This document shows, one piece after another, positions 1 through 20,000 of a stretch of 20,000 nucleotides of DNA. The first letter of the stretch is position 1. Every line of letters starts with the position of its first letter. Source of the stretch: Armatimonadota bacterium (GTDB taxonomy: Bacteria > Armatimonadota > Fimbriimonadia > Fimbriimonadales > Fimbriimonadaceae); assembly GCA_031400935.1 (NCBI GenBank), contig JANNQV010000058.1, positions 53,142 through 73,141 of the forward strand, read 5' to 3'. The notes beneath the pieces were generated by a model. That model was not told where the DNA came from. It searched no databases and saw only the letters and a list, made by a program, of their open reading frames with translations. The position numbers were made by a program, and so were the translations under genes.

Positions 1-2289
1 CTGGTTCCGTATGGTGACAAAAAGACTGCGGCACATCTTCGCTATGCTACTCATCTGAAGCTTGGATATCAGCTATACGAGAGGAGTTTTGAGGAGTTTG
101 GCAAAGTTCGAAAACCCATTCTCTTTGTAATGACTGAAGATGCTGCATCGGCTAACGAGATTTCAGATTTCTTGGATAGTGATCAATTTCCGTTACTGAA
201 AGGCATGGTTCTGAACATCCACACACGGTTGAAAGGAAGCATTAGAAAAGTAACTAGAAATGGCAGAGAAGTCAAAGAGTTCATTGAAAGCGAATCTGGG
301 ATGAAGCCAGAAGAACTTCGTGCTCTTAGAGAGATGTCTAGGGACCTAGATTCACCTTCAAGTAAGTTTCGCTGTGTGGTTTCTGTAATGATGCTTAGAG
401 AAGGATGGGATGTTAGAAATGTCACGACTATTGTCCCATTGAGACCCTATTCAGCAGCATCTGGGATTTTGCCAGAACAAACTCTTGGCAGAGGACTTAG
501 AAGGATGTTTCCAGGTGAGCCAGACAAGACTGAAAAGGTCGTTGTTGTTCACCACAAAGCGTTTCGTGAGCTCTACGAAAAGGAACTTGCTCAAGAGGGT
601 TTAGACATTGCATTTCTACCCATACGAGATATATTCAAAGAAACAGTAACCATATTTGTTGACCACGATAAGAAGAATGTTGAGGAATTGGAAATTGAGA
701 TTCCATTGGTCTCAGATGCAGTGGAGTCGACGACTGAGCTTCAAAGTCTTGAATTTAGCGAGTTTGCCAACTACTTCAAAGCCAACTATAGGCCCTTGCC
801 AGTTGGCCAAAAGAAAGATGCACAAATCTCATATGAGGAAAGGCACCTGTTTACAGACGAGATTGTTGCACAGTTCAAGTTAGATGCTGGATTGCTTGCT
901 GCTGCTTTTACTGCATCTACCTATTTTGCCCAGATGCTTGGAAGAGGATGCAGAATTAGCAATCCGCACAAAGTTCTGGAGCCATTAATTGAAAGGTTCT
1001 TATCCGAAGTCTTATTTGAAAGAAAGGTCAGCCTTTACAATGGTGAAGTTGACCACAGAATGAGAGATGCAGATGTTTTGGAACACGTGAAAGCAACATT
1101 TGCTCCCTTAATAACAAAGAAAACAGTCTGGATAAAGGATCGTAAAAAGCTCTCAAAGGGTTCAAGACTCTCCGTTTGGAAACCATACCAAGCGACAAGC
1201 ACTGCTGATAGACCTGCACTTCCCGCAAAGAGAACCATGTTCAACTTGGTTCCTTGTGCAAACGAGTTAGAGCAGGGATTCACAGACTTTTGTGAGTTTG
1301 CAACTGACGTAGCTGCATTTGTCAAAAACAATGGCCCGCAGAAGCTAATGATTGATTACCTGAAGCCTGATGGACAAAGGGCCCTTTATGTTCCAGATTT
1401 CTTTGTTAGGTCAACGTCAGGCAAACACTTTCTTGTCGAGCTGAAGGGAAAGGTTGATGAACTTGTCCCGATGAAAGCACAGGCTGCATCAACTTGGTGC
1501 AAAGCTGCTTCAAAGGAAGTGGATTGGGAGTACCTATATATTCCGTACCATCTGTTTCAACAAAGCCATGCTTCAACAATTGCCGATATGGCCAGAGCCT
1601 GCATCCCTTCATTGAAGGATCTGATAAGCGAAGCAAAGAACCGTCAAGCAACACTACCACTAGAAGAAGCTACAGCCCTTGCTCATGCTGAAGACCTCTA
1701 CACCAAGACTTTGGCCAAATGCGGTGTGTCATTGCTTTCGGCAGATGTCGAAGGGAGAGTCCGACAAGCTCTTAATGCGCTTGAAGATGCTGTAGTAAAG
1801 AAGGCACCAACACTAGGCTTGGCTTTCCAACCACTTCTTGGTTCCCTTGATAATCTGTCCTTTCGCATCCTTGATCAAAGACTAAGTTCTCATGTCCCAC
1901 CCACCACAACCGAGAGAGAATACTACTTTGATCCTGTACTGTCAGGTTTTAGCGGTGGTGGACTCACTACCCTTCAAAAGCACCAAAGGTGGCTGAAGGA
2001 TAATCTTGTTCATGGCAGAAGAATGCAATTACTTGCAACACTTCTCTTTTGTTTGAAATATGCCAACGAGTGGGATCGGGATGCAGGTGGAGTCTGGGAT
2101 GATGTCAGAGATGAATTCTCTGCTGAGAAGTTGGCAATTCTGTTGCCGATTCTCACAAATGTAAATGATGTTAGGAACAGAAGCGTTGCACACGTAGACG
2201 TTGAGCTATCAGACCCAGAGGAAGCTTGGATCTACATGCGTGAGTGGATTAAGTGCCTTGCCATGATGCTTGACGGACTCGAATCTTAG
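1..2289 (+). CDS. Type III restriction Res-subunit-like SF2 helicase / PD-(D/E)xK nuclease with C-terminal HEPN-like domain (5' partial)
   Basis: Frame 1 is open from base 1 (LVPYGDKK...KPILFVM), so the gene starts upstream of the window. Helicase motifs MLREGWDV and EQTLGRGLR; nuclease motif YVPDFFV...LVELKG (about 1387-1449); RNRSVAH at 2173-2193. Confidence 0.8.
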   Translation: MVPYGDKKTAAHLRYATHLKLGYQLYERSFEEFGKVRKPILFVMTEDAASANEISDFLDSDQFPLLKGMVLNIHTRLKGSIRKVTRNGREVKEFIESESGMKPEELRALREMSRDLDSPSSKFRCVVSVMMLREGWDVRNVTTIVPLRPYSAASGILPEQTLGRGLRRMFPGEPDKTEKVVVVHHKAFRELYEKELAQEGLDIAFLPIRDIFKETVTIFVDHDKKNVEELEIEIPLVSDAVESTTELQSLEFSEFANYFKANYRPLPVGQKKDAQISYEERHLFTDEIVAQFKLDAGLLAAAFTASTYFAQMLGRGCRISNPHKVLEPLIERFLSEVLFERKVSLYNGEVDHRMRDADVLEHVKATFAPLITKKTVWIKDRKKLSKGSRLSVWKPYQATSTADRPALPAKRTMFNLVPCANELEQGFTDFCEFATDVAAFVKNNGPQKLMIDYLKPDGQRALYVPDFFVRSTSGKHFLVELKGKVDELVPMKAQAASTWCKAASKEVDWEYLYIPYHLFQQSHASTIADMARACIPSLKDLISEAKNRQATLPLEEATALAHAEDLYTKTLAKCGVSLLSADVEGRVRQALNALEDAVVKKAPTLGLAFQPLLGSLDNLSFRILDQRLSSHVPPTTTEREYYFDPVLSGFSGGGLTTLQKHQRWLKDNLVHGRRMQLLATLLFCLKYANEWDRDAGGVWDDVRDEFSAEKLAILLPILTNVNDVRNRSVAHVDVELSDPEEAWIYMREWIKCLAMMLDGLES

Positions 2290-4115: not shown

Positions 4116-5923
4116 CCTGTAAGCCACTCAACAGCTTTTGAAACGTACTCAGGAATGTCGTTTGCATGTTTCGTATGTCGAGCTGTAATTTGTGCAAATC
4201 TGGCCTTACCAATTCTCTTTGCAAGATTCAGAACCCTTGTCCCGATCTGATCTGTTGGAAGGTTTGCTTCCTCTCTCGCAATTGCTTCTTGTAGTTCCTT
4301 GAGTAACTTTTGCAAAGATGCAGCTTGGACTTCGTATGCTGCCCATTCCAACATATGAAAGTTGCCCGATGTAGCAATCTCCCTTTCAAACGTAGAAGTA
4401 CTTTGGAACACTTTCACCAAGTCGTTTTCTTCTACATTCAGTTGCCTCAATGTACTGACATCAACATCAGATTCTGCATCTTCAGTATCGACTGCATCTG
4501 AGGGGACAAGATCACCGTCTGCAACCACAGCACACTTCTTTTGAATTCCTTCAGGACCAAACAGCTTCGCATAGACTGAGAAGTGAGTTCCATATATCGG
4601 AACAACAGATATTCCAAGATCTTCCAAGTCAATTCCCATAACCTGTTTGACCAATGGTGGGATCAAGAATTGTTCTGCTGGACCTTCAACCAACATGACA
4701 CGTCGAGCATACAAGAGTGTGGATCTGGTTGCGTCGAGGTATCGCTCCAGATCTGCCCCAATCTTCTCATCAATCCCTGGAATCTGTGCAACTCGAACAG
4801 ATCCTGTGGCTGCACTGCCAGTAGATGTAAGGACTACTTGCCTTTCCAATGGAATCGCAGATGTGACGTGTGTGCTATGTGAAGTTACAAATACCTGGAC
4901 ACTTTTGTTCAGCAACATTGAAACCAGAACCCTCTGAAGCTGTGGATGCAAATGTGCCTCAGGCTCTTCAATCAATAGCAGCTGGCCAGCCATTTTCGCA
5001 TCAACTCGACGCTGCTCGAAATATCTCAGGATCATGCTGATGAAGAGAACATTATTCAAGCCAAGTCCATTTCTGGATGGATCTATATTGTCCAGTCCAT
5101 AACCTGAAAGTAGAACCTTGATACCTCTTGTAATATCAGTGAATGTTGGAGTTCCTAATCCCAATGAAACCGACATTGAATATGTTTTGCCAGCCGCTTC
5201 GCCAAATGAAGCTGTGATCTCATTCGCAAGATCCTTGATTGATTCGCTGTCATTGATTTGCTTGTTCGCATCCTTCAATAAGTCAACTAAGCCGGTTTGC
5301 TCTTCAGCAGGGAATCCTTTCTGATCAATCAATTGCTGAAGCGGAGATCCTCTTTGTTGAGCAAGCCGCGATTCAACATCTCGCAGAGCTTCCATCAATA
5401 CGACCAAATATCCCTGCTGTAGTGTTTCGGATCGGAAGTAAGATCCAAAGTTGTCACTCCAACTGATTGTGGACAGATCAATATCATCTCCACCACCAAC
5501 CAATTCCCAATGATAGTCATCAAGGTTCAGTTCTCTGGCAGGTTTGCCATCTCCCCATTGAGCGATCTCGTCTCTGACCACAGCTCTCGGCCTGAATCTG
5601 TAGCTGAGCCTTGCTACTCCAGATTCAAGTACAGCTTCACAAATCAATGCCTCTTGCTCAGGCTGATCGGCAAAGTCCGAGAACTCAATTGAGATCAGCA
5701 CATGCTCAGGCTTTTTGAATGTGAGGCCGACTGAAACCTCATCTTCCTGCAAACACCGTCGAGCAGAGCTGATAGTTCCGTCCAATACGAGCCTAAGTGC
5801 ATAGAAGAGGTTTGTCTTTCCAGAGTTATTCTCACCGATGAAGCAAGTCACTCCGTCGCAAATTGGGACATCCAAGTGTCGGAAGTTACGAAAATTCCTT
5901 ATGAAAATCCTGCTAATGTGCAT
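4112..5923 (-). CDS. gajA: OLD-family ATP-dependent nuclease (ABC ATPase + TOPRIM), GajA-like
   Basis: N-terminal IRNFRNF, Walker A GENNSGKTN, Walker B/D-loop LLIEEPEAHLHP, H-loop TSHS, TOPRIM LVEG and DGD. Translationally coupled to the UvrD gene. Start is ATG 5923 or TTG 5935. Confidence 0.85.
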   Translation of the reverse strand: MHISRIFIRNFRNFRHLDVPICDGVTCFIGENNSGKTNLFYALRLVLDGTISSARRCLQEDEVSVGLTFKKPEHVLISIEFSDFADQPEQEALICEAVLESGVARLSYRFRPRAVVRDEIAQWGDGKPARELNLDDYHWELVGGGDDIDLSTISWSDNFGSYFRSETLQQGYLVVLMEALRDVESRLAQQRGSPLQQLIDQKGFPAEEQTGLVDLLKDANKQINDSESIKDLANEITASFGEAAGKTYSMSVSLGLGTPTFTDITRGIKVLLSGYGLDNIDPSRNGLGLNNVLFISMILRYFEQRRVDAKMAGQLLLIEEPEAHLHPQLQRVLVSMLLNKSVQVFVTSHSTHVTSAIPLERQVVLTSTGSAATGSVRVAQIPGIDEKIGADLERYLDATRSTLLYARRVMLVEGPAEQFLIPPLVKQVMGIDLEDLGISVVPIYGTHFSVYAKLFGPEGIQKKCAVVADGDLVPSDAVDTEDAESDVDVSTLRQLNVEENDLVKVFQSTSTFEREIATSGNFHMLEWAAYEVQAASLQKLLKELQEAIAREEANLPTDQIGTRVLNLAKRIGKARFAQITARHTKHANDIPEYVSKAVEWLTG

Positions 5924-7303
5924 TTCTTGTCCCAAATCCTCACAACAAAGACCCTCTCGAACTAAGTATACGCATTGGCTTGTTAAAAACTAGAGGTCCG
6001 TGAATATGGATGCCATGAAAAGGCTTGGAATGCTCTGAAAATGCGGAATACTTTTCTTTGCAATTTCACTCCCATAAGTTTATTCAGGCAGAAGCTGCCA
6101 TTGTCCTAGCCTGCTCTTCTTTTGGCTCTGTCAAGAGAGCCCTTCCTTTTGTTTCAAACTTATTTTCACAACTCAAATAAACTGGAAAGGAAAGAGTGTA
6201 ACTTAGTTACACATTTCTTTGATTAGGTTCGATTCGGGTTTTCCTTCCTTAAGCGCCCTTCCTCAAGCCTCCAATCTCATATAACTTTTATTAAATTCTG
6301 AAAGGGAGAACTGGGAACTGTGTTCCCAGATTCTTGACGAACTTGTTTTTCAAGGCATTTTTATTCTCTGTTTCAGAATTGAGTTTATTGGGTTCAAGAT
6401 GCAGAAACTCCTTAAGACTCAAATTCCTACGAATCAACTTTACTAAATTCTGGATTGAAGAATAATGGGAACGAGGTTCCCATTACCAAAGGATCATTTA
6501 TTTCACTATTCAGTATTTTTGAATTAACTTGAAATCCTAAGGAACTCCATCTATACTGCTCCCTGTTCAAGGGAGCAATTTGTTTTTGCTGGAAATAGGT
6601 TCGAATATGATGAAGAAATCTCTCTCGGTGATCCACCAATACTAATCTTCACTCCCATTTCCCAAGCTCTGCTGTGAAGCAATCAGGGTCTCTTACGTGT
6701 TTTTGAGAAGGTGCACGACTGTTTACGTGCCGCTGCATACTTCAGCTAACCGCTTCAACCAGATGCCTTGGTTTAGGATGGGACTTACACCTTGCTCTTT
6801 TGCAGAGCTTCTATATGCTGGTCCAAGAAATATGATCTTGGCCTTTCTTTCACCCACAATTCGACTTGCAGATGTTATTTTCAAATTCAATATTATTGTT
6901 GTGGCAATCGAGACAAACTTGCACAGTTTCTTGCGATTTCCAAATCAAATAGAGGATGCGACCTCTAATAATACTACTCATTTTCTGACGGAAATATTAC
7001 AAAAATCTCTCAACATCCTGAGAACATTCAAGAAGGAATATGATCCTGAACAGCCCTGTTCACATACAAAAGGGCACAGAAATGACTTAACCCCACCTTA
7101 GGCCCACCCTAGCTATGGGTTAGGGTACCAATGTAGTCTTAAAGAGCGCAGTAAGTCCCCAGTAACCACAAGTCTTCCTAGCATTGAAGCTCTTAGAGAA
7201 CGAGAACCCAATAATGACATACCTCTGAGAGATAGGGGCGCCTTGAGTTAATGACCCCCCCATCGTTTCTGAGAATTATATTTTCCTCCAGTGGTCCTGT
7301 TTC

Positions 7304-7417: not shown

Positions 7418-7502
7418 AAAGAAATCGCTCACTCAGTTACTCCAACTCACTCACTCACAAACCTGTTAAGGGTCAGGCCGAGTGCTTGATAAGGAGAAAT
7501 CA

Positions 7503-8300
7503 ATGAATGACAAGATCCAGAGTAAGGCTGACCAAGCCATACTTACTCTCTCTCAGTCCCTTGATCAGGGCAAATCTGAGACTCTCAAAACCTACCTAAC
7601 TACTATGGCAAAATTCCATAGGTACTCCTGGTTCAACTGTATGTTGATATGGCTTCAGAAACCTAATGCTACTCATGTTGCAGGGTTCAAGAAGTGGTTA
7701 GAATTGGGTAGGTGTGTAAAGCATGGCCAGTCAGGGATTATGATTCTTGCTCCTGTGATTTATAGGAAATCTAAGGCTGAGAAAACCCAAGAGGAGACTG
7801 AGCAGAGAGAAACTGCAACTAACTTTACGACGGCATTTGTCTTTGACATATCCCAGACTGAAGGTCGACCACTAGCTGCACTTAGCAGAAGAACTGGTAA
7901 CCCTGGCATTTACACTGAAAGAATTGTATCCTTTGCGAACAGTAAGGGAATCATAGTCAAATTTGCTGAGAACCTGAATGGCTGTTTGGGACTCAGCAGA
8001 GGCGGAGTTATAGAGGTCCTGTCAGATCTTCCAGCTGCAGAAAAGTTTGGTGTACTCGTGCATGAGGTTTGTCATGAAATCCTTCACCAAGGTGAGCATG
8101 TTGGAACTAAGCCTAAGGTAGTAAAAGAGTTGGAAGCCGAAGCAACAGCCTTTGTAGTCTGCACTGCCATTGGCCTAGAGGATAGGTCAGCATCTGCTGA
8201 CTACATCCACTTGTACCAAGGAGATTCTCAGCTACTCATGGCTAGTCTAGCTTCTATCCAGAAAGCCTCATCTATGATCTTGAAAGACATCCTTGACTGA
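7503..8300 (+). CDS. ArdC-like protein (N-terminal ssDNA-binding domain + zincin-like HExxH domain)
   Basis: FHRYSWFNCMLIWLQKPNATHVAGFKKW..LGRCVKHG and VFDISQTEG are typical of the ArdC N-domain; HEVCH...ELEAE is the metalloprotease-like motif. SD AAGGAG at 7491-7496 precedes ATG 7503. Confidence 0.8.
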   Translation: MNDKIQSKADQAILTLSQSLDQGKSETLKTYLTTMAKFHRYSWFNCMLIWLQKPNATHVAGFKKWLELGRCVKHGQSGIMILAPVIYRKSKAEKTQEETEQRETATNFTTAFVFDISQTEGRPLAALSRRTGNPGIYTERIVSFANSKGIIVKFAENLNGCLGLSRGGVIEVLSDLPAAEKFGVLVHEVCHEILHQGEHVGTKPKVVKELEAEATAFVVCTAIGLEDRSASADYIHLYQGDSQLLMASLASIQKASSMILKDILD

Positions 8301-8420
8301 GCCTGATTGGCCTGCCTGTGATTGATGCCCTGCAGACGTTCATTGGAGCCTTCACATAGGGTCCCTTCCAATGTACTTTGCAGGGCAAATAATCTTTCAG
8401 GCATGGTTAGGCAATAGGCT
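8300..8420. repeat. Long imperfect inverted repeat (rod-like stem-loop 1)
   Basis: Nested pairs AGCCT/AGGCT, TGCCTG/CAGGCA, TGCCCTGCA (8326-8334)/TGCAGGGCA (8379-8387) and CATTGGA/TCCAATG. Confidence 0.8.
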
Positions 8421-8431
8421 TCCTGTTCACC

Positions 8432-8626
8432 ACAAATCAGTCACTGGCATGAAAAGTGGACATGCCTCCCAGACTGAATTCACCTAGGTAGTTCACGCTC
8501 ATCGCTGCTAGATACTGCAGGCACAAACCATCCTGCTGTATCTAGCAAAAGATGCCCTGCGGGACGCTACTACCTAGCGACTTCTAGTCTGGTGCCCTCC
8601 ACCTTCATGCTACGGAACTGATTTGT
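8432..8626. repeat. Long imperfect inverted repeat (rod-like stem-loop 2, about 195 nt)
   Basis: Nested pairs ACAAATCAGT/ACTGATTTGT, GCATGAA/TTCATGC, GTGGA/TCCAC, CCAGACT/AGTCTGG, CTAGGTAGT/ACTACCTAG, TGCTAGATAC/GTATCTAGCA and GCAGG/CCTGC. Confidence 0.85.
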
Positions 8627-8641
8627 AAGCTCACTGTCCGA

Positions 8642-8705
8642 AGTGTTTGATGTCACTTGACATCAAACACTAGTGATAGGCATAATTATGCTGACAGATG
8701 TCATC
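8642..8705 (+). promoter_or_regulatory. Sigma70 promoter with two putative BlaI-family operators
   Basis: TTGACA (8657-8662), 18 bp spacer, CATAAT (8681-8686). A perfect 14-bp-arm inverted repeat at 8642-8671 contains GATGTCActTGACATC; the second site GCTGACAgaTGTCATC is at 8690-8705. Confidence 0.75.
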
Positions 8706-8722
8706 AACCTAAGGAGGATTTC

Positions 8723-9877
8723 ATGAGGTTACTTTTCTGTTCAGTCATTTCGTTGCTTGTCTTAACTGGTTGTGGTGGAGGAGGTTCAGGGTCCTCACCC
8801 ATAACTGAGGGCTCAATATCAATAATAGGAGATTTTGCACCAGCAACCCGCACAGTCCCTGGCTATGCCACTGAACTGAGAGTGGTCATTACTCCACCAC
8901 TTGGAGTAGTACTTCCACCGAACATTGTCAACCCAATCGTACTTACCCGATCTTCACCACAAAGGTCTCTTTCAAATCTGAGTGTAAGTTCGAGTCCCTA
9001 CCAATTAACAATGACAGCCTACACAGGCACTTCTAACGTGGGTGCTGCTGTCAGGAGCATAGTCGTACAAGGTGCGAGAATCTCAGAAGTCGATGTCTCA
9101 GCAAACCTACAAAGTGGAGTTGATTCAATAACTGTTGAAGGAAACTCATCTGTCCTGCAACAAGGTTCAACACAGCTAACGGCATATGCAAGGAATGCTC
9201 AATCTGCAACTCTCTTTTCAGGAGATGGGTTCTCTTGGTCAAGCTCTAATTCAAGTATCTTGTCTGTTGATGCAGATGGAACATTAACAGGTGAAGGTGG
9301 TGGCGATGCCGAAATCACAGCTACCCTTAGCGGAACTTCTCAATCTGGTTCCAAAAGTGTAACAGTAATTCCAACAGGGCAAGGCGCCCCCTTAATTTCA
9401 AATGGAGATATGGAAATTGCTTTTCGAACAATAAGCACAGAAACTTCTCCTTATCCGTTCAGCTACCCTGCAGCACCAGTTCATTGGGTGATGAATACAG
9501 GTGCTCCTAATAGGACAGCAACAAGCGAAATTATGATCTCCCAGGCTCCAACTGGAAGTGGAAGCATGGTTCGCTTCTACAACAATCAAGGGCAAGATGG
9601 AACCTACAATGGTTCTGCATTAGCTCAGTACTTCCCAGCCACCTCAAATGTGCGCTTCGAATGCGATATCAAAGTACTTCAAGGAACAGTGATGTTAGGA
9701 CCAGTTGGAACAAGTGGCCCTTTCTATAGCCAAACAACTTACACACCAAACGGTTCATGGAGACACATTCTAATTGATTGCCCTGTTTCTACTGAAACTG
9801 TTGCATTTCAGAATGTTGGACCTCTCGATTCAGTGCTTGAAATCTACTTGGACAACGTGAAGGTCTATCACCCCTAA
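8723..9877 (+). CDS. Lipoprotein with Ig-like (Big_2-type) domain and a C-terminal beta-sandwich/CBM-like domain
   Basis: SD AAGGAGG before ATG 8723; lipobox LTG-C followed by GGGGSGS; WSSSNSSILSVDADGTLTG...AEITAT is Ig-like; ISNGDME...IYLDNVKV resembles CBM-type jelly-roll domains. Confidence 0.7.
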   Translation: MRLLFCSVISLLVLTGCGGGGSGSSPITEGSISIIGDFAPATRTVPGYATELRVVITPPLGVVLPPNIVNPIVLTRSSPQRSLSNLSVSSSPYQLTMTAYTGTSNVGAAVRSIVVQGARISEVDVSANLQSGVDSITVEGNSSVLQQGSTQLTAYARNAQSATLFSGDGFSWSSSNSSILSVDADGTLTGEGGGDAEITATLSGTSQSGSKSVTVIPTGQGAPLISNGDMEIAFRTISTETSPYPFSYPAAPVHWVMNTGAPNRTATSEIMISQAPTGSGSMVRFYNNQGQDGTYNGSALAQYFPATSNVRFECDIKVLQGTVMLGPVGTSGPFYSQTTYTPNGSWRHILIDCPVSTETVAFQNVGPLDSVLEIYLDNVKVYHP

Positions 9878-9916
9878 AGAAGCAGTATCCAACGATTCTT
9901 TTGGCTCATTGCTACT

Positions 9917-11653
9917 TCATCTTGCAGTGGGCCAAAGACTTGCATTTCCATCAGACACTTGGCTAAATCTGAAATCCCTTAGATCTACTTTGGCAATGTG
10001 AGGCTGGCTTCCATCTTGGGAAGTCATGACAACTGAAGTGTCTCCATCGACAAACTCAACTTCACCAGTATCAAGCTGATTTAGTGGCACCAAAGGCTGA
10101 AATATTCCAGTCCTCAGATCAAGAATTGCAGATTCATGCTTTGTCCTTCGATCAGTTGCAAATAGGACATACATGCCATTCTTGCTGTACCTGCCATGAG
10201 TATCTTCACATGTACCAAGCGTAAGCTGAACAAGGCCACTACCATCAAGGTTCATAGACCAGAGTTTTTGAGATCCTGTTCTGTGGGATGAGAAGATGAT
10301 CCTTTCCCCATTAGGATGAATTGAAGGCTCCAAGTTCCTCTTTCCATCCACGGTAATTAGTTTCCATGTTCCAGAAACGGGGTCAACAATTCCAATTTCC
10401 CAATTTCCAGTCACCATTGTGCAGAAGACTAGTTTCGAACAGTCTGGGCTCCATCTAGGTTGAACATCTCTCTTTCCAGTTGAAACAATTAGCTTCTCTC
10501 CAGTTCCATCAACATTTGCAATGTAAATGTCTTCCTGGCCATTTGGAGATCTGTTGAAGGCAATCCATTTGCCATCTGGCGAGACAGAAGGAACTCCAAC
10601 ATTTGTGAACACTTCTGGAAGTGGAGTTGGATTTCTACCATCACTTGTCATTCTCCAAAGCCTTGAAACTCCATTTCTTGGAGCTACATACACAACCTCG
10701 TCATGCCCAATCTGGTTTGGATCTGGATTGTAAGCACTTACAAGTTGGAAAGGCAGCAGGATTGGAACGAAGCTTGCTAAGCTCGTAATACTCCACTTAC
10801 TCTGCTGAGGTTTTGCATCTTTGGACAGTGCCCTAATCCTTGTTAGCAAATGACTTTGACCTCTGAGTCTTGAAAGAACAGGCTGAGGAATAGCTGCCAC
10901 ATTTGAAACTAAGAGTTCTTTGTATCCCTGTCTGCTTCCTAGTTTCTGATCAATGAATTCCTCTTGGGCAAGGTTGGAATTCCTAAGCCCAAACCAAACA
11001 AGAGGATTCCACCAAAGGAGATGTTGAATGAGGGCATAGAGAACTAGCCTGATCGGGTCATGTTGTTTGAGGTGAAGAAGCTCATGCTCGATAACCAGCC
11101 TGCAATTTGCGGCTTCCAAATCCAAGGATGCAGGAAGAAGAATGACAGGCTGAGTTACACCCCAAACACAGGGTGATTGAATTGCATCTGATACTTTGAG
11201 CATGGGAACGTCTGCAAGTTCAAATTGCTGTCCTAGTTCATATAGGAGCGCGAGTAGCTCTTCATCCACAACTTGTTCAGCGCTCCTTACCAATCTGAGA
11301 GTTGCTATAAGTCTCCATCCAAGAACTCCAACTCCAAGAATGGCAAGTGTTGCCACGATGATGACAAAGTAACTTGTCTTAGGATCACCTAGATAAGTTG
11401 GGGACAATTTGGCATATCCTGGTTCGAGCTCAAAGACTTGTGCTCCAAAGTTTCCTTGAATCTCATTACCTTTCAGAATAGGTAGATAAATTCTGGAAAA
11501 AGGAATAAATAAGATCAATGGGGATGCAAAGCAAACAGTCCAAATCCACTTTCTAACAAGAGAGTCTCTTCTGAAAATCCAACTTAAGGCCAGCCCAAGT
11601 GCAAAGACTGCTGAAATCCTGAACAGAATCTCAATGAGTTGGAATTGGGACAT
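9917..11653 (-). CDS. BlaR1/MecR1-family M56 metallopeptidase with C-terminal TolB/PD40-like beta-propeller
   Basis: N-terminal TM segments; SPCVWG...PVILLP, HELLH and WWNPLVW; repeats PSVSPDGKWIAF, PRWSPDCSKLVF and PSIHPNGERIIF. Lies directly downstream of a BlaI-like gene. Confidence 0.85.
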   Translation of the reverse strand: MSQFQLIEILFRISAVFALGLALSWIFRRDSLVRKWIWTVCFASPLILFIPFSRIYLPILKGNEIQGNFGAQVFELEPGYAKLSPTYLGDPKTSYFVIIVATLAILGVGVLGWRLIATLRLVRSAEQVVDEELLALLYELGQQFELADVPMLKVSDAIQSPCVWGVTQPVILLPASLDLEAANCRLVIEHELLHLKQHDPIRLVLYALIQHLLWWNPLVWFGLRNSNLAQEEFIDQKLGSRQGYKELLVSNVAAIPQPVLSRLRGQSHLLTRIRALSKDAKPQQSKWSITSLASFVPILLPFQLVSAYNPDPNQIGHDEVVYVAPRNGVSRLWRMTSDGRNPTPLPEVFTNVGVPSVSPDGKWIAFNRSPNGQEDIYIANVDGTGEKLIVSTGKRDVQPRWSPDCSKLVFCTMVTGNWEIGIVDPVSGTWKLITVDGKRNLEPSIHPNGERIIFSSHRTGSQKLWSMNLDGSGLVQLTLGTCEDTHGRYSKNGMYVLFATDRRTKHESAILDLRTGIFQPLVPLNQLDTGEVEFVDGDTSVVMTSQDGSQPHIAKVDLRDFRFSQVSDGNASLWPTAR

Positions 11654-11659
11654 TTCTTC

Positions 11660-12031
11660 TCACTCTTCAAGCTTGTCAAGAAGTTCTCGAAGCTCTTTTA
11701 GCTCAGCAGGGTCAATTCCCTTTGCATCTGCAAGGAAAGAAGCAATTGGTTTCAGGCTCCCTCCTAATCTGTCTTTGACAAATGACTCTACTAGCTGCCT
11801 TTCCATATCCTCAGAGGCTTGTTTGGCAGAGTATATGAATGTTCCTTCGACCAGCTCCCTCTCTACCAATCCTTTCTTTAGCAACCTATCCATTGATTTG
11901 ACAATGGTTCCCCTTGTGTAGCCCTGAGGTTTTCCAAACTGATCAAAGATATCCCTGACTGAGAGAGAGCCTTGGCTTGAAAGGAACTGTAGGAGATCGA
12001 ATTCAAACTTGCCTGGGGGTCTAGATGCCAT
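11660..12031 (-). CDS. BlaI/MecI/CopY-family transcriptional repressor
   Basis: EFDLLQFL...SVRDI...YTRGTIVKSMDRLLKKGLVER...FIYSA...ELKELRELL pattern. Likely start is ATG 12031, 6 nt after CATAAT. Confidence 0.85.
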   Translation of the reverse strand: MASRPPGKFEFDLLQFLSSQGSLSVRDIFDQFGKPQGYTRGTIVKSMDRLLKKGLVERELVEGTFIYSAKQASEDMERQLVESFVKDRLGGSLKPIASFLADAKGIDPAELKELRELLDKLEE

Positions 12032-12054
12032 GAAGAAATTATGCACTATTTCAT

Positions 12055-12108
12055 GATGACTATTGACATCTAGTTTCAGAGTTTGTTAGACTGATGACAG
12101 TAAGCATC
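12055..12108 (+). promoter_or_regulatory. Divergent promoter region with two putative BlaI-family operators
   Basis: TTGACA (12063-12068), 18 bp spacer, TG-T-TAGACT (-10 at 12087-12092). Sites GATGACTatTGACATC at 12055-12070 and GATGACAgtAAGCATC at 12093-12108. Confidence 0.7.
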
Positions 12109-12132
12109 TATGAGTACTCGGAGAACTTGGAA

Positions 12133-12744
12133 ATGGTCGTGCATCTCGTCATCCTCTTTACACTCGCCCCTGCAACAATGCCTAGCATAAGCCATTTTCT
12201 TGGACAGAGTGCTTTGCCACTCACACTTAGTGAAGCCCAGAATTTCCGAGGCGACATAACTGCGACCCTCAAACGGTTTGTTCAAAGGAAGGCCTTTATT
12301 GGCACCTCCATCGATGGTAAGAAGATGACTGATACAGTGAGAGAGTTTAAATTGAACGCCAAGTTACTAGTTCTTCATAACAATTCTACTATTAAGAATG
12401 TTGTAACAGATGATACATACGCCATACCGCTGAACAAAGTCACTGAGCTGCATCTTTCTGACATTGTCTTTGCATACCAAGAGCTTTCAGTAGAACTGAA
12501 ACCTGGCGAGTGGCATGGCGTAGTGTTTGTAACTGATCCTCCTACTAAGCAAATTAGGATGTTACGACAAATCACATTTTTTGAGAAGCGGAGTGAGCCC
12601 ACTAGTAAGCTAGAGGGTAGGTGTTTAGTAAAGTTCCGAAGTTCGGCATCTGAGGCTCGTATCGTGTTAGATCTATGCAGGCAGCTCTGTGAGCGATATG
12701 GTGGAACTCCAAAACTATACGATGGTATTGGCAAAAATGAGTGA
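12133..12744 (+). CDS. Hypothetical protein, possibly exported
   Basis: Open frame; GGAG at 12120-12123 before ATG 12133; hydrophobic N-terminus MVVHLVILFTLAPA. ATG 12094 is too close to the predicted -10 to be transcribed. Confidence 0.55.
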   Translation: MVVHLVILFTLAPATMPSISHFLGQSALPLTLSEAQNFRGDITATLKRFVQRKAFIGTSIDGKKMTDTVREFKLNAKLLVLHNNSTIKNVVTDDTYAIPLNKVTELHLSDIVFAYQELSVELKPGEWHGVVFVTDPPTKQIRMLRQITFFEKRSEPTSKLEGRCLVKFRSSASEARIVLDLCRQLCERYGGTPKLYDGIGKNE

Positions 12745-12774
12745 CACTTCTGAATGTAATTCTTATGACTGATA

Positions 12775-12900
12775 ATGGGAAGCACTTCAGAATTCATTGA
12801 TTACAACGAGTTTCTTGGTGTGAACTTAGATGCTTTAAGAGATGTCATTTCTGAGCGAATTCGAGCAATGTATGAGACCTGGCTGAGCGTTCTCGCATGA
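12775..12900 (+). CDS. 41-aa ORF resembling the N-terminal half of a J-domain (possible remnant)
   Basis: MGSTSEFIDYNEFLGVNLDALRDVISERIRAMYETWLSVLA*; its stop overlaps the next start codon (ATGA at 12897-12900). Confidence 0.4.
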   Translation: MGSTSEFIDYNEFLGVNLDALRDVISERIRAMYETWLSVLA

Positions 12901-13619
12901 ACCGCAAAGAGTGGGCTGCAAATGTCCTTCGTATCCCCCCAAATTCCACTCATGATGTAGCTAAACAAGCTCATCGAGATCTGCTTATGGTTTGGCACCC
13001 TGACAAGTACTCAGGCAATCTGAGGTTGAAGGGCAGAGCCGAAGAAATGGCTAAGGAGATCAACCTGGCCTTCGAAGTGTTTACGGGTAAAGACTCTGAG
13101 TCTCAGATTCCTGGCACAGAAGAAAGAGCAAGTTACTTTTCAGAGGATTCGTCAAAACCTGATTGGAGCAATTGGCAAAAGACTTCAAGTGGAAGCGCAG
13201 GTCCTCCAACACAAGAAAAGGAACCTGCTGCATCAGCTGGTATGCAGGACATGTGGTGGGTTGAAGAATCCAAGCTTTATGAGCAAAAAGGTCGAACACA
13301 GAATAATCAGACAACCTCACGACAAACTAACGAAAGTGGGGGATCAGGTTGTGCAGGCGGTGTGATAATGGGAGGGCTAATTGGCCTCCTTTTTGGTGGT
13401 TGGGGTGCCATTCCAGGAGCGCTGATAGGTGGACTTATTGGCGGATCAATAGGCAATAACGACAAGAAGTCTGGAGATGCAGTTGATGCAATGGGTGGAA
13501 GTACTTTGGGCTGCCTTGGATCATTCATAAGTGGTCTTTTTGAGACTGTGGTTGGGTGTGGTTGCGTGATTGCTGTTGGAATCGTAATCCTTGTGATAAT
13601 TGCATCCTTATCAAGGTGA
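12897..13619 (+). CDS. J-domain (DnaJ-like) membrane protein
   Basis: VLRIPPNSTHDVAKQAHRDLLMVWHPDKY...KEINLAFEV contains the HPD motif; low-complexity linker; Gly-rich hydrophobic segments and a C-terminal TM helix. Confidence 0.75.
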   Translation: MNRKEWAANVLRIPPNSTHDVAKQAHRDLLMVWHPDKYSGNLRLKGRAEEMAKEINLAFEVFTGKDSESQIPGTEERASYFSEDSSKPDWSNWQKTSSGSAGPPTQEKEPAASAGMQDMWWVEESKLYEQKGRTQNNQTTSRQTNESGGSGCAGGVIMGGLIGLLFGGWGAIPGALIGGLIGGSIGNNDKKSGDAVDAMGGSTLGCLGSFISGLFETVVGCGCVIAVGIVILVIIASLSR

Positions 13620-15128: not shown

Positions 15129-15446
15129 TCATTCTGCTAGGTTAGGATACTCAGGATATGCTTCCTTGATCAGCTTGATTTCACTTGGTTTGAGAAGGGC
15201 AATACTGCTAATCTTTCTGTACTTCTTATAAGTACCAATCGCGTAAGACAACTCATGCTTGAAGTCATCATCAGCATCTGGTCTATCCTTGAGGATTTCC
15301 TCAAATAGCGAGGCTCGCTCTTGAAGGCCTCGAATCTGAAGGTTGACTCGATTCTCAAGATTCTCAAGATTCTTAATACGCTTCTCTGCACTCCAGCCCA
15401 AGATCGCGCAGGATTGAACTACTATTTCTTTCTGAATTTCTGTCAT
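15129..15446 (-). CDS. Hypothetical protein (helical, coiled-coil-like)
   Basis: 105-aa ORF with SD AAGGAG upstream. Confidence 0.7.
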   Translation of the reverse strand: MTEIQKEIVVQSCAILGWSAEKRIKNLENLENRVNLQIRGLQERASLFEEILKDRPDADDDFKHELSYAIGTYKKYRKISSIALLKPSEIKLIKEAYPEYPNLAE

Positions 15447-15469
15447 TTCTAATTTCTCCTTAAGATAAC

Positions 15470-15502
15470 CAACTGAGGCTCATGGTATAAGAGCCTCAGT
15501 TG
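15470..15502. repeat. Intergenic stem-loop H2
   Basis: CAACTGAGGCTC-9 nt-GAGCCTCAGTTG. Confidence 0.85.
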
Positions 15503-15513
15503 CTTCCTTGACT

Positions 15514-15846
15514 CTATAGTGCTAGGAAGGGTTCGGGTGTCATATCGAACAGGTCCAGTGGTTCATTGTCCACACTGATTCTGCCTCTGATGCTTTCAAT
15601 TCCTGCATAATTGATGTGAAAGAACATTGGATATGAGAAGACACAATTGCTTTCATCTCCAATCTTTTCCACAACACTTTGCTCAAAGACACGGTTCAGA
15701 TTTCTCGAAACAGAGAGTTCGTGAGCAGCCTTGAACTCTTTTCCTGAGAGCCTGAATTCCAGCTTCTTACCTATGCTATTCGGAATTCCAATTGAACTTG
15801 CCATAGCTTTCAGTGATAAATATAACTCAACTTGCTTAATGTTCAT
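15514..15846 (-). CDS. Hypothetical protein
   Basis: SD-like AAGAGG before ATG 15846 (MNIKQVELY). The longer predicted start at 15900 lies inside hairpin H3. Confidence 0.6.
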   Translation of the reverse strand: MNIKQVELYLSLKAMASSIGIPNSIGKKLEFRLSGKEFKAAHELSVSRNLNRVFEQSVVEKIGDESNCVFSYPMFFHINYAGIESIRGRISVDNEPLDLFDMTPEPFLAL

Positions 15847-15876
15847 CGTTTTTTTCCTCTTGAATTGAGTAGGTAA

Positions 15877-15909
15877 CTGAGGCTCTTGGATCAACTCCAA
15901 GAGCCTCAG
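15877..15909. repeat. Intergenic stem-loop H3 (related in sequence to H2)
   Basis: CTGAGGCTCTTGGA-tcaac-TCCAAGAGCCTCAG. Confidence 0.85.
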
Positions 15910-15924
15910 AAAAACCTATCTTTG

Positions 15925-16311
15925 CTAAGCAGCAGCCTTCTCCTTTGGGCTGAATGCTTCATGTTTCATCGAGGCATTTACCTTGCGAATAAGAACGGCC
16001 TGATCATCAAGGAGAATGATCACCTTCCTTCCGGTAGCTACTTTAGCTCTTTTCAAAGCAGCTTGGAAGACAGCATTATCATCCAAATCAGATTGACTTG
16101 CCCAAGTGTATTCGGCAACCATCTTCTCAGAATCAAAGCCTGAAGCTCTATAAGCTCCCCAATTTTTGGGGTCCTTTTCAGTATTCGCAATATATGGGTG
16201 TGCAGTTTCGAGCTTAACGAAGTGTGCTAGAAAAATATCAACAGGTGATATTTCAAGAGCAAGTATGTTGAGGGAAACACTTTTGGTGCTTCCAAAATTA
16301 AACGATTTCAT
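15925..16311 (-). CDS. Hypothetical protein
   Basis: 128-aa ORF with a strong SD (AGGAGG) 8 nt upstream of the ATG. Confidence 0.75.
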   Translation of the reverse strand: MKSFNFGSTKSVSLNILALEISPVDIFLAHFVKLETAHPYIANTEKDPKNWGAYRASGFDSEKMVAEYTWASQSDLDDNAVFQAALKRAKVATGRKVIILLDDQAVLIRKVNASMKHEAFSPKEKAAA

Positions 16312-16423
16312 AGTTTTGACCTCCTAGGTCTGATCAAAACTGCTGGATAGAAAACAACAAAAAGCCTGTAATGACAAACTAAACAGCAGTTTGATCTGCA
16401 TATTCAATTACCATTACAGGCTT
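16312..16423 (-). promoter_or_regulatory. Structured leader with overlapping alternative pairings (terminator-like stem, SD-sequestering stem, anti-sequester segment)
   Basis: 16412-16423 pairs with 16362-16373 (12 bp, followed by a U-rich tract). 16332-16341 pairs with 16312-16321. 16384-16396 pairs with 16332-16345. Confidence 0.55.
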
Positions 16424-16461
16424 AGGTTGATCCTCAAGGGACCAACGCGATTGAAACTAGA

Positions 16462-16866
16462 CTATACCACCGCTTTTGGAGGATTTATCTGATTTATTGA
16501 AAAAACTCGCTTTTCAGGTTCAAAAATATCTGCTCCAAGCTTCTTGAAGGGGTCAATCTCTGGTCCAGCTTCAACCAAGAACCACTCTTCAAGTGCTCCA
16601 GTAACTTGAACCAGGCAACATGGCTCCTTTCCTCCTGATCTGATCTGAGGAAATTCAAACTCAATATCCTTGGAGTTTCCAATCCAGCTCCACTCTTCCT
16701 GAAGATCTGAATCAAGATCAAGTTGCCAATATCCTTCAGTACCTTCTGGAAGCCTAGCAAGCTGCTTTCTGATCATTTGATCAACAGCTAATCTAGCCTT
16801 AAAAGCAAGACTGCTCTTATCTTGCTTTTCCTTTTGCCTTCTCTTCTTTCGACCTTCCTCTTTCAT
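16462..16866 (-). CDS. Hypothetical protein
   Basis: 134-aa ORF starting 9 nt after the tRNA CCA; basic N-terminus; no clear SD. Confidence 0.55.
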   Translation of the reverse strand: MKEEGRKKRRQKEKQDKSSLAFKARLAVDQMIRKQLARLPEGTEGYWQLDLDSDLQEEWSWIGNSKDIEFEFPQIRSGGKEPCCLVQVTGALEEWFLVEAGPEIDPFKKLGADIFEPEKRVFSINQINPPKAVV

Positions 16867-16875
16867 TTTGAGACC

Positions 16876-16951
16876 TGGAGCTGCTAAGGAGACTCGAACT
16901 CCTGACTTGATCTTTACGAAAGACCTACTCTACCAACTGAGTTATAGCAGC
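16876..16951 (-). tRNA. tRNA-Thr(CGT), complete, element-borne
   Basis: GCTGCTA TA ACTC-AGTTGGTA-GAGT A GGTCT-TTCGTAA-AGATC AAGTC AGGAG-TTCGAGT-CTCCT TAGCAGC T CCA forms a 76-nt cloverleaf with G1-C72/C2-G71. Confidence 0.95.
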
Positions 16952-16967
16952 TCTTCTGAACCTTATG

Positions 16968-16997
16968 ATTCTACTCAAGGCTTCCCTATAGAGACAA
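16968..16997 (-). promoter_or_regulatory. Putative sigma70 promoter of the element tRNA
   Basis: Minus strand TTGTCT, 18 bp spacer, TAGAAT, ending 16 nt upstream of the tRNA. Confidence 0.55.
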
Positions 16998-17003
16998 GCT
17001 GAA

Positions 17004-17052
17004 TCTGAGTAGCTCTGTGTAAAAATCTGTGTAATCCAGAAAAACTGAGTAA
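17004..17052 (+). repeat. Four 9-bp direct repeats, putative integrase arm-type sites
   Basis: TCTGAGTAG at 17004, TCTGTGTAA at 17014, TCTGTGTAA at 17026 and ACTGAGTAA at 17044. Confidence 0.6.
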
Positions 17053-17084
17053 ATTTGAACCTAAATCCACTAGATTTCTGCTTG

Positions 17085-17121
17085 TTACGAAAGAATTGCT
17101 CTACCGCTGAGCTAAAGTGGC
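17085..17121 (-). pseudogene. 5' half of host tRNA-Thr(CGT), truncated at the end of the anticodon loop (att junction)
   Basis: GCCACTT TA GCTC-AGCGGTA-GAGC A ATTCT TTCGTAA is followed by non-tRNA sequence (CAAGCAGAAATC). Confidence 0.9.
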
Positions 17122-17236
17122 ATTAGCTTGAGTTGAGAATTTTACTCTAGACTTGAAAACTGGGTCTAGGTCGCTTGCCAACTGCGCCGACAACTTGCCG
17201 GCCACTTGCAAACGTAGGTTGTGCGATAATGCCTTC

Positions 17237-18055
17237 ATGACACAAGCCACAAGCCTTCCCTCGCTTAACGACGAATTCCCGTTGCCCGAAAATGCCGTCA
17301 CTGGATTTCAAGAAGACGGCTGGGCTTTGCTCCGAAATGTTTGCTCGCCAGAAGAAGCCGCAACTTACGGCAAAGTGATCCGCGAAGTAGCCATCGCAAA
17401 CAGCAATGAAACTCGCCCGATGGAAGAGCGAGACACTTATGGAAAGGCGTTTCTACAAATCACGAACCTTTGGCGACTTGATGAACGTGTCGCGGCGTAC
17501 ACGCTGAGCAAACGATTCGCAGGCATCGCGGCAAAGCTTTTGGGAGTGGGACATGTTCGCATCTACCACGATCAGGCCCTGTTCAAAGAACCAGGCGGCG
17601 GACACACGCCATGGCATCAGGATGGTTATTTTTGGCCGCTCGACCATGCAAAGACGGTCACGATGTGGATGCCGCTGATTGATGTTCCAGCCGAAATGGG
17701 CACGATGTCTTTCGCCGACAAATCCCACCAAGCAGGAATCGTTTCGCTTGAGGTGGGTATTTCCGATTCAAGTGAGTCGTACTACGAACAATACATTCGA
17801 GATCAAGGCTATTCTGTAACCACAAGTGGAGCCATGAAGGCGGGCGATGCCACATTTCATTCTGGACTCACTTTACACAAGGCGCCCAACAACCCCACCC
17901 AAACTGTGCGCGAGGTTATGACGATCATATACTTTGCAGATGGGCTGCGAATCGCCGAACCTCAGAACACTAATCAACGAAACGACCTCGAAACCTGGTT
18001 CCCAGGAGCGAACGCTGGAGATTTGGCGGCGACGGAGTTGAACCCGAGGATCTAG
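17237..18055 (+). CDS. Phytanoyl-CoA dioxygenase (PhyH)-family Fe(II)/2-oxoglutarate dioxygenase
   Basis: DQALFKEPGGGHTPWHQD (HxD), TMWMPL, GDATFHSGLTLH and a downstream R. Likely start is ATG 17237, 6 nt after TGcGATAAT. Confidence 0.9.
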   Translation: MTQATSLPSLNDEFPLPENAVTGFQEDGWALLRNVCSPEEAATYGKVIREVAIANSNETRPMEERDTYGKAFLQITNLWRLDERVAAYTLSKRFAGIAAKLLGVGHVRIYHDQALFKEPGGGHTPWHQDGYFWPLDHAKTVTMWMPLIDVPAEMGTMSFADKSHQAGIVSLEVGISDSSESYYEQYIRDQGYSVTTSGAMKAGDATFHSGLTLHKAPNNPTQTVREVMTIIYFADGLRIAEPQNTNQRNDLETWFPGANAGDLAATELNPRI

Positions 18056-19798: not shown

Positions 19799-19999
19799 CT
19801 ACCGATTTGGCTTAGCTGGCGCTGCTAGTCGTACATCCTCCAGCCGATAGTTCATTCCGCGCTCTTTTGGCATTCCATAAAGCTCTGGGTGCTGATACGT
19901 CCCACGCTCGCGCCCTTGTTTTTCGATCACGTCTCTTGGCTTTCGGTCACGCACGTAAAGGTCGTTTCTGTCAGCATCTACTCTCCAGGAAACTTCAAT
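19799..19999 (-). CDS. C-terminal end of a convergent gene (5' part outside the window)
   Basis: IEVSWRVDADRNDLYVRDRKPRDVIEKQGRERGTYQHPELYGMPKERGMNY...* ; protein-like, and reminiscent of C-terminal tails of fibre-like secreted proteins (function uncertain). Confidence 0.6.
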   Translation of the reverse strand: MEVSWRVDADRNDLYVRDRKPRDVIEKQGRERGTYQHPELYGMPKERGMNYRLEDVRLAAPAKPNR

Positions 20000-20000
20000 G

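Follow-up and report, generated by a model that had tools for sequence, protein, structure and literature searches.

An Armatimonadota defence island that appears to split a tRNA-Thr(CGT) gene at its anticodon loop and to carry a foreign stand-in

Canonical tRNA-gene islands, as treated in the available part of the Islander database paper (PMC4383910), arise by integrase-driven insertion, and the displaced fragment of the tRNA gene marks the island end. Another strategy, tRNA-dependent lysogeny, has been demonstrated experimentally in phages (Guerrero-Bustamante & Hatfull, mBio 2024, PMC10865867). In the cases set out in the accessible sections of that paper (the actinobacteriophages Fionnbharth/K4, Cluster L, Cain, Gaia and others) a tyrosine integrase acts on an attB in a tRNA gene through a core of 8-17 bp, the gene is not reconstructed, and viable integration requires that the phage carry a tRNA of identical anticodon. 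The authors also mention Lj965, a Lactobacillus johnsonii prophage, as a candidate, and phage-related sequences that substitute host tRNA genes are described for Sinorhizobium meliloti in the available part of a further paper (PMC11476347).

The DNA considered here, referred to as the window, is the whole stretch of 20,000 nucleotides that was analysed (C58:53142-73141 of the Armatimonadota assembly G000), and its right edge coincides with the contig end. The reading that best accounts for the locus, with a probability of roughly 0.8, is that of an integrase-driven island that broke a tRNA-Thr(CGT) gene and brought along a foreign tRNA-Thr(CGT) as a stand-in (table 1). Recombination by a tyrosine integrase would have inserted 24.35 kb into the 7-bp anticodon loop of the chromosomal gene. 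Since the attP would share only the loop with the attB, the host gene would not be rebuilt; its two dead halves would bound the island, and the complete foreign gene, which has the orientation of the broken half and lies 133 bp in from the junction, would stand in for the lost tRNA. The basis is the split itself, the 7-bp core and the arm repeats, together with an intact allele both in a congener and in sequencing samples that contain this DNA, and the finding of a sole Thr(CGT) gene, that of the island; the integrase presumably made the insertion.

Table 1. Features of the locus, in window coordinates except where contig C58 is named.
Feature	Position	Strand	Basis or remark
Type III restriction (Res) protein, 1139 aa, C-terminal part	1..2289	+	gene start outside window
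GajB	2355-4127	-	PADLOC 2.8e-193
GajA	4112-5935	-	PADLOC 2.1e-207
Other cargo: ArdC-like anti-restriction, Big_2 protein, BlaR1-like/BlaI pair, 216-aa ORF, DnaJ-domain protein	7482..13619	.	Pfam
Tyrosine integrase P0001, 370 aa	13895..15007	-	Pfam Phage_integrase 3.3e-22; PHROG integrase 6.8e-52
Four small ORFs (105, 128, 128, 134 aa) between integrase and tRNA	15129..16866	-	no family match
Complete tRNA-Thr(CGT), 76 nt, CCA encoded	16876..16951	-	ARAGORN, Rfam, cloverleaf fold
Promoter-like site of island tRNA, TTGTCT-18-TAGAAT	16968..16997	-	17 nt upstream; 9/12 consensus match only
Island P' arm, 133 bp	16952..17084	-	repeat and motif content
TCTGTGTAA pair in P' arm, 12 bp apart	17014-17022, 17026-17034		
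CTGAGTAAAT in P' arm	17045-17054		
TTGAACCTA in P' arm	17055-17063		
Common core, 7 bp, TTACGAA on + (anticodon loop)	17085..17091	+	sole sequence common to both junctions
Orphan host tRNA-Thr(CGT) 5' half, nt 1-37, ending with the anticodon loop	17085..17121	-	identical to 5' part of the congener (G001) gene
Promoter-like site of broken host gene, TAGACC-18-TAAAAT	17139..17168	-	consensus match only
Host flank PhyH-family dioxygenase	17153..18055	+	syntenic with G001
Second core copy	C58:45871-45877		outside window (window coordinates -7270 to -7264)
Predicted host tRNA-Thr(CGT) 3' half	C58:45837-45877	-	7.3 kb left of window base 1

Read from its sequence, the host tRNA-Thr(CGT) gene is split exactly at the 7-nt anticodon loop, and its halves lie 24.35 kb apart. 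On the minus strand, from 17121 to 17085, the acceptor 5' strand, the D arm and the 5' strand of the anticodon stem are followed by the loop TTCGTAA and then by unrelated DNA. The far end was located by a genome search for the loop joined to the complement of the host anticodon stem, which returned one fitting site on the island contig; there the loop is succeeded by the 3' strand of the anticodon stem, the variable loop, the T arm, the acceptor 3' strand, U73 and CCA, and the DNA preceding it on the island side is non-tRNA. A sequence-only reading of the window had described the 37-nt half that ends after the loop and runs into non-tRNA DNA, and had foretold that the loop and host 3' half would be found behind non-tRNA DNA at the far end; the first point agrees also with the gene of the congener, and the second turned out as predicted. 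The bases flanking the 7-bp core on either side differ between the two junctions, and no tRNA is called at either of them by ARAGORN or by Rfam at E<=1. Beyond the loop the right junction passes into the P' arm and not into the 3' half expected of a canonical tDNA island, and the far junction has no island 5' half of the kind that restores the gene in a reverse-orientation island; a 7-bp core, with no tRNA rebuilt at the junctions, is the arrangement of tRNA-dependent lysogeny. Promoter-like hexamers, by consensus match only, are still found 18 nt upstream of the orphan half. A trans-spliced split tRNA was considered and rejected, the complementarity beside the two halves amounting to only 6 bp, and we know of no bacterial precedent for such a gene.

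An empty site is present in a genome of the same genus (G001), where an intact tRNA-Thr(CGT) lies directly beside phyH and equals the exact join of the two halves: the 3' 45 nt of the gene match C58:45833-45877 at 45 of 45 positions, the 5' part is identical to the 37-nt orphan fragment, and nuoA/nuoC occupy the opposite flank of the locus in both genomes. An island-type tRNA is absent from G001, where a search with the island tRNA retrieves nothing but the resident host-type gene (75% identity), so that the comparison of empty sites beside phyH, suggested with the sequence-only reading, yields an intact host-type gene and no precursor of the island copy. Together with the split halves and the catalytic integrase described below, the intact gene would indicate that an element integrated into an attB overlapping the host tRNA gene. 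As a separate observation, a 1.58-kb insert with a YaaC-like gene (L029:1100-2678) lies between nuoC and the intact tRNA 3' end in G001, so that the other flank of the tRNA is variable too.

Occupied and empty alleles coexist in the samples of two freshwater-sediment runs (X1 and X2), which are possibly the source samples and so not independent of the assembly. The contig reaching from the island to the junction has a depth of 10.3 in one run and 11.8 in the other, and that leading from 17085 into the flank 25.3 and 30.5. Both runs also have another contig on which 17085 is immediately preceded by 23 letters that agree fully with the host 3' half, hence the presence of the intact allele; the island/flank depth ratio of about 0.4 is a hint only, contig depths not being cell shares. 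These runs also bear on the notion that the junction is an assembly chimera, the artefact against which the sequence-only reading had cautioned. A draft, metagenome-style assembly of 67 contigs might harbour such an error, but both junctions lie inside one 73-kb contig, the halves fit to the base, and contigs of the two runs, which also hold the intact allele, cross and reproduce the right junction, though the runs may be source data; a chimera is therefore hardly credible. Towards the contig end (window 19860-20000) the depth climbs to 57.8 and 68.8, against 25-30 just before, and a repeat probably ended the assembly there.

The island proper extends over C58:45878-70225, i.e. 24,348 bp between the two core copies, with a GC content of 43.6% as compared with 48.4% and 50.0% in the flanks. 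Paired TCTGTGTAA repeats, 12 bp apart, are found at both ends, at 51-71 bp from the core on the right and at 85-105 bp on the left. Genome-wide there are eight exact copies of TCTGTGTAA, three of which are at the island ends, where one more copy has a single mismatch. Both ends likewise contain ATTTACTCAG and TTGAACCTA, and in the P' arm GTTCAAA begins 24 nt after the core. The 7-bp direct repeat, taken alone, would equally fit transposition with a target duplication of that size and without any part for the integrase, and a weak TnsA-like match (E 0.0054, below the cut-off) inside the Res protein could be quoted in its favour; yet no transposase and no terminal inverted repeats are found in the island, the break falls exactly at the anticodon loop that tyrosine integrases use, and breaks of this type are also where related integrases are located, which makes this explanation highly improbable. 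Long repeats and nested att sites are likewise absent from the island, a self-comparison giving two internal palindromes only. Where the Big_2-domain ORF starts there is a near-perfect palindrome of 30 bp (28/30; window 8642-8671), possibly an operator or terminator.

Elsewhere in the G000 genome six other tRNA genes have ordinary 3'-fragment repeats, with start positions that range from 10 to 33 and in five cases fall within 28-33. Ordinary restoring islands appear to be common in this genome, and the Thr(CGT) locus is the exception. The six are Thr-UGU, Arg-UCU, Gly-GCC, Val-UAC, Val-GAC and Trp, the contigs concerned are C41, C35, C45, C18, C20 and C28, and three of the repeats are on the same contig as their tRNA, 6.6-38 kb away.

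The complete gene next to the right junction is the sole tRNA that ARAGORN calls in the window; its Rfam score is 63.3 bits, as compared with a gathering score of 29, and a cloverleaf fold was obtained. The sequence-only reading had placed a full gene with the same anticodon 133 bp further in and had listed differences between the two tRNAs in the acceptor stem, D arm and anticodon stem, all of which hold. The island tRNA has the strand orientation of the broken 5' half and, as in tRNA-dependent lysogeny, the anticodon of the destroyed gene, to which it is about 75% identical. It shares 13 bp around the loop with the attB, with the three loop-adjacent stem pairs kept and the two outer anticodon-stem pairs different from those of the host tRNA; the attP shares 7 bp. 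In the sequence-only reading the changed anticodon stem may prevent the new copy from acting as an attB, an effect that would have to come from the two outer pairs. Common to both tRNAs are G1-C72, C2-G71, G35, U36, U73 and an encoded CCA, and these would be threonine identity elements. The promoter-like sequence of its own with which the island gene had been credited corresponds to hexamers matching 9 of 12 consensus positions 17 nt upstream, and read-through from the surviving host promoter-like site may also be possible, because that site is co-oriented with the island tRNA. In an RNA run (X3) only 17085-17216 is covered, which represents the intact host-type gene of a relative, with none on the island, and the run is uninformative on expression. 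The island tRNA is presumably expressed and charged, and the host would need it.

The tRNA complement bears on such a need indirectly. Of 47 tRNA genes found by ARAGORN in the assembly, one is a Thr(CGT) gene, that of the island, and the remaining threonine set consists of two UGU genes and one GGU gene. With a completeness of 95.6% over 67 contigs, the assembly could have missed a second Thr(CGT) gene. The codon ACG accounts for 25% of threonine codons in 1,203 long host ORFs versus 7% in 17 island ORFs (14.4 versus 3.8 per 1000 codons), and the island tRNA thus fits the demand of the host and not that of the island. The destroy-and-replace interpretation proposed from the sequence alone is accordingly supported by the far junction, the sole Thr(CGT) gene and the empty site.

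Alternatively, the island tRNA may be incidental cargo, either a hitchhiker or a counter to tRNA-cleaving defences, with the host tolerating the loss through tRNA-Thr(UGU) reading ACG. The two tRNA-Thr(UGU) genes of G000 might indeed read ACG by wobble, in which case a replacement may be dispensable. A 738-aa AAA_13/PDC-S06 protein encoded in the island but outside the window (L002:7671-9887, plus strand), whose C-terminus matches the anticodon nuclease PrrC weakly (4.4e-10), would also be in keeping with this view; it is a possible RloC-like tRNA nuclease, and its gene has the type III restriction-modification genes and one for a DUF2130 protein as neighbours. That such tRNAs may act against defence systems is raised in the discussion of PMC10865867. 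However, the anticodon is identical to that of the destroyed gene, out of more than 40 represented in the genome, the tRNA is only 133 bp from the break and co-oriented, and ACG is heavily used by the host and little by the island, all of which makes incidental carriage unlikely.

As to where the stand-in came from, a match at E<=0.001 is present in 25 of 175 genomes of the host family, the top one, self excluded, reaching 84% over 57 nt. The host itself probably belongs to a Fimbriimonadaceae-like lineage of Armatimonadota, to judge from named NuoC matches at 67-70% identity. In a phylum sample of 401 genomes 26 match at E<=1e-8: at this threshold there are none among 47 sampled genomes of the host family (G000 excluded) and 17 of 28 in another family (f25), with 83-85% identity. 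Four of the best five loci are chromosomal tRNA-Thr(CGT) genes, and three exact patterns of the island tRNA have no match in viral contigs. Within the anticodon loop, six of the seven positions are invariant among nine aligned Thr(CGT) genes.

The integrase has the catalytic residues R217, K253, H314, R317, H340 and Y349, which are invariant in an alignment (A1) of 11 homologues. Its best homologue (P0002, on JGI contigs) is 56% identical and the next ones 34-41%, all on metagenome contigs, and single-protein searches of genome and metagenome contigs returned no close relative with DNA context. A search with the alignment yielded 80 metagenome loci (best 36%), 48 viral loci (<=30%) and one genome locus (27%); for the metagenome and viral loci L030-L157 and for L168, ARAGORN gave either no integrase-tRNA pair or one of the ordinary kind. 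Among the 175 genomes of the host family four, including G000, have an integrase match at E<=1e-30, and the nearest genome-resolved relatives are those of G431 (38% identical) and G511 (35%). In G431 a 37/37 identical copy of tRNA positions 1-37 is located 4.55 kb upstream of a complete tRNA-Thr(CGT), and in G511 such a 37/37 copy lies 9.7 kb upstream of a complete tRNA-Thr(UGU). In both cases the integrase is between two 5'-half copies, and the intervening DNA of G511 encodes a type I restriction system and an AAA_21/DUF4276 pair. To judge from this layout, they are islands upstream of the gene that would restore the tRNA with an island-borne 5' half. A reverse-orientation tRNA island that supplies a new 5' part and a promoter and so restores the gene is said to have been described by Zhao and Williams in J Bacteriol in 2002.

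The G431 and G511 islands of reverse polarity correspond to L176:4492-11749 and L177:1226-11028, respectively. In G431 the integrase, which is preceded by an HTH_17 gene, has been truncated through insertion of an IS (rve), and a 28-nt repeat of the 3' part is present 2.6 kb downstream of the tRNA. A different arrangement is observed in G174 (L028:8664-8840) and at about L168:5100-5200, where an inverted tRNA 5' half with the anticodon stem-loop (loop CTCTGAA) lies upstream of integrases 33% and 27% identical, respectively, to that of the island, with a GGTTC-ATTT-GAACC hairpin 24 nt after the loop. Between the inverted copy of G174 and the full tRNA-Lys(CTT) next to it, 39 of 40 positions agree, and a partner 3' half is absent from the G174 genome; the tRNA adjoining the inverted copy in L168 is Val(TAC).

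Two consequences follow for the island of G000. The premise that attP normally supplies the 3' half, adopted in the sequence-only reading, does not hold for this integrase clade, in which the two closest genome-resolved relatives supply the 5' half. Moreover, G431 and G511 leave an orphan host 5' half, so that this feature is normal for the clade; what is unusual in G000 is the unrepaired far junction, the P arm without a 5' half and the whole tRNA behind the P' arm. The search among integrase homologues for this same layout, also suggested at the outset, returned none among those with DNA context, the 35-38% identical integrases restoring the tRNA. In the P' arm GTTCAAA occurs exactly 24 nt after the core in G431 as in G000, and this common spacing relates the att architectures of the two. 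An alignment with MAFFT places a gap in the P arm of G000 at the 5'-half stretch of the relatives, with no convincing remnant.

The missing stretch lends itself to two explanations. In one, the island once repaired the gene with its own 5' half and a later chromosomal deletion removed that half, leaving the element as a stranded relic. G431 and G511 do carry the half in the P arm and it is just that stretch which G000 lacks, but arm-type motifs persist at the far end, 18-105 bp away from a 7-bp core that is itself intact, so that this end resembles a working P arm rather than a scar, the intact allele in the same samples is what a recent or mobile insertion would leave, and the half could equally have gone from the element before insertion; a stranded relic is thus quite unlikely. 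In the other, which elaborates the reading of a break with a stand-in and is offered tentatively, as a possibility less probable than its opposite, a lineage that normally repairs its target with a 5' half would have had a member, that of G000, in which the half disappeared and a whole tRNA came to lie behind the P' arm. A match to the 7-nt loop would then suffice for the attP, and this would free the island to move between hosts with differing tRNA bodies. The closeness of the island tRNA to another family (83-85%) rather than to the host (75%) fits this host-range reading.

As regards cargo, the adjacent GajA (ATPase and TOPRIM) and GajB (UvrD helicase) constitute a Gabija system, with Pfam matches to AAA_15, OLD-like TOPRIM and UvrD. 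Upstream of the Res gene the island contains a type III methylase (6.1e-240), a PDC-S06/AAA_13 gene (2.6e-129) and a DUF2130 gene. The 216-aa ORF matches no known family in the Pfam search, and the four small ORFs have no match in Pfam, PHROGs, PADLOC or NCBIfam and may be regarded as candidate excision or regulatory genes. In PHROGs the 19 island proteins gave weak structural matches, to head closure inside the Res protein (3.7e-4) and to Ig-domain and tail proteins for the Big_2 protein (2.5e-6 and 2.3e-4); no capsid, terminase or portal, as a temperate phage would have, is found among them, and the island is therefore not called a prophage. In X1 and X2 the 3' part of the ArdC-like gene (window 7991-8300) has a second version on other contigs, with about 91% identity (20 other letters in 226), which shows that a related element exists in the same community.

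Several practical consequences may be considered. Island finders that seek a restored tRNA together with a displaced fragment would overlook islands of this type or set their ends wrongly, and in tRNA surveys the foreign gene would pass for one of the host. Relatives that repair with the 5' half permit a direct comparison of how an attP shrinks to a bare loop, and the coexistence of intact and occupied alleles in the sediment samples provides natural material for testing excision and fitness. If the host-range reading is correct, the island would be a snapshot of how break-and-replace integration arises and of what is gained by it.

With canonical islands, as the available part of PMC4383910 presents them, the locus has in common the integrase-driven insertion into a tRNA gene; unlike them, and unlike the six other G000 loci, the Thr(CGT) island restores nothing. 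With reverse-orientation islands it shares a fragment at the island edge that is the tRNA 5' part, as in G431 and G511, but these two supply a restoring 5' part and the G000 island does not. Among the openly available papers listed by the literature searches, none was found to describe break-and-replace on a non-phage defence island or in this phylum. The mechanism itself is already published (2024, PMC10865867), and with the phages covered in the accessible text of that paper the likeness is close: a tyrosine integrase works at an attB inside a tRNA gene through a very short core (7 bp in G000 as against 8-17 bp in the phages), a diverged tRNA with the anticodon of the target gene is part of the element, and there are paired arm-type sites on the two sides of the core. 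The carrier in G000, however, has defence cargo without a virion module and is not a recognisable phage, its host belongs to the Armatimonadota and is not an actinobacterium, and its integrase relatives restore with a 5' half and not a 3' half. Furthermore, its tRNA is 133 bp from the core, behind the promoter region of the broken gene, whereas that of Fionnbharth is elsewhere in the genome according to the same portion of the paper, which also shows for its phages the tRNA requirement that would apply to the G000 island. In S. meliloti (PMC11476347) and Lj965, as far as the available parts of the sources describe them, a host tRNA is likewise replaced by an element gene more like those of unrelated taxa, in elements that, unlike the present one, are phage-related and from other phyla. 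New in G000 are the non-phage carrier, a host from this phylum and an integrase of 5'-half-restoring ancestry; break-and-replace integration would extend to non-phage defence islands in a distant and little-studied phylum.
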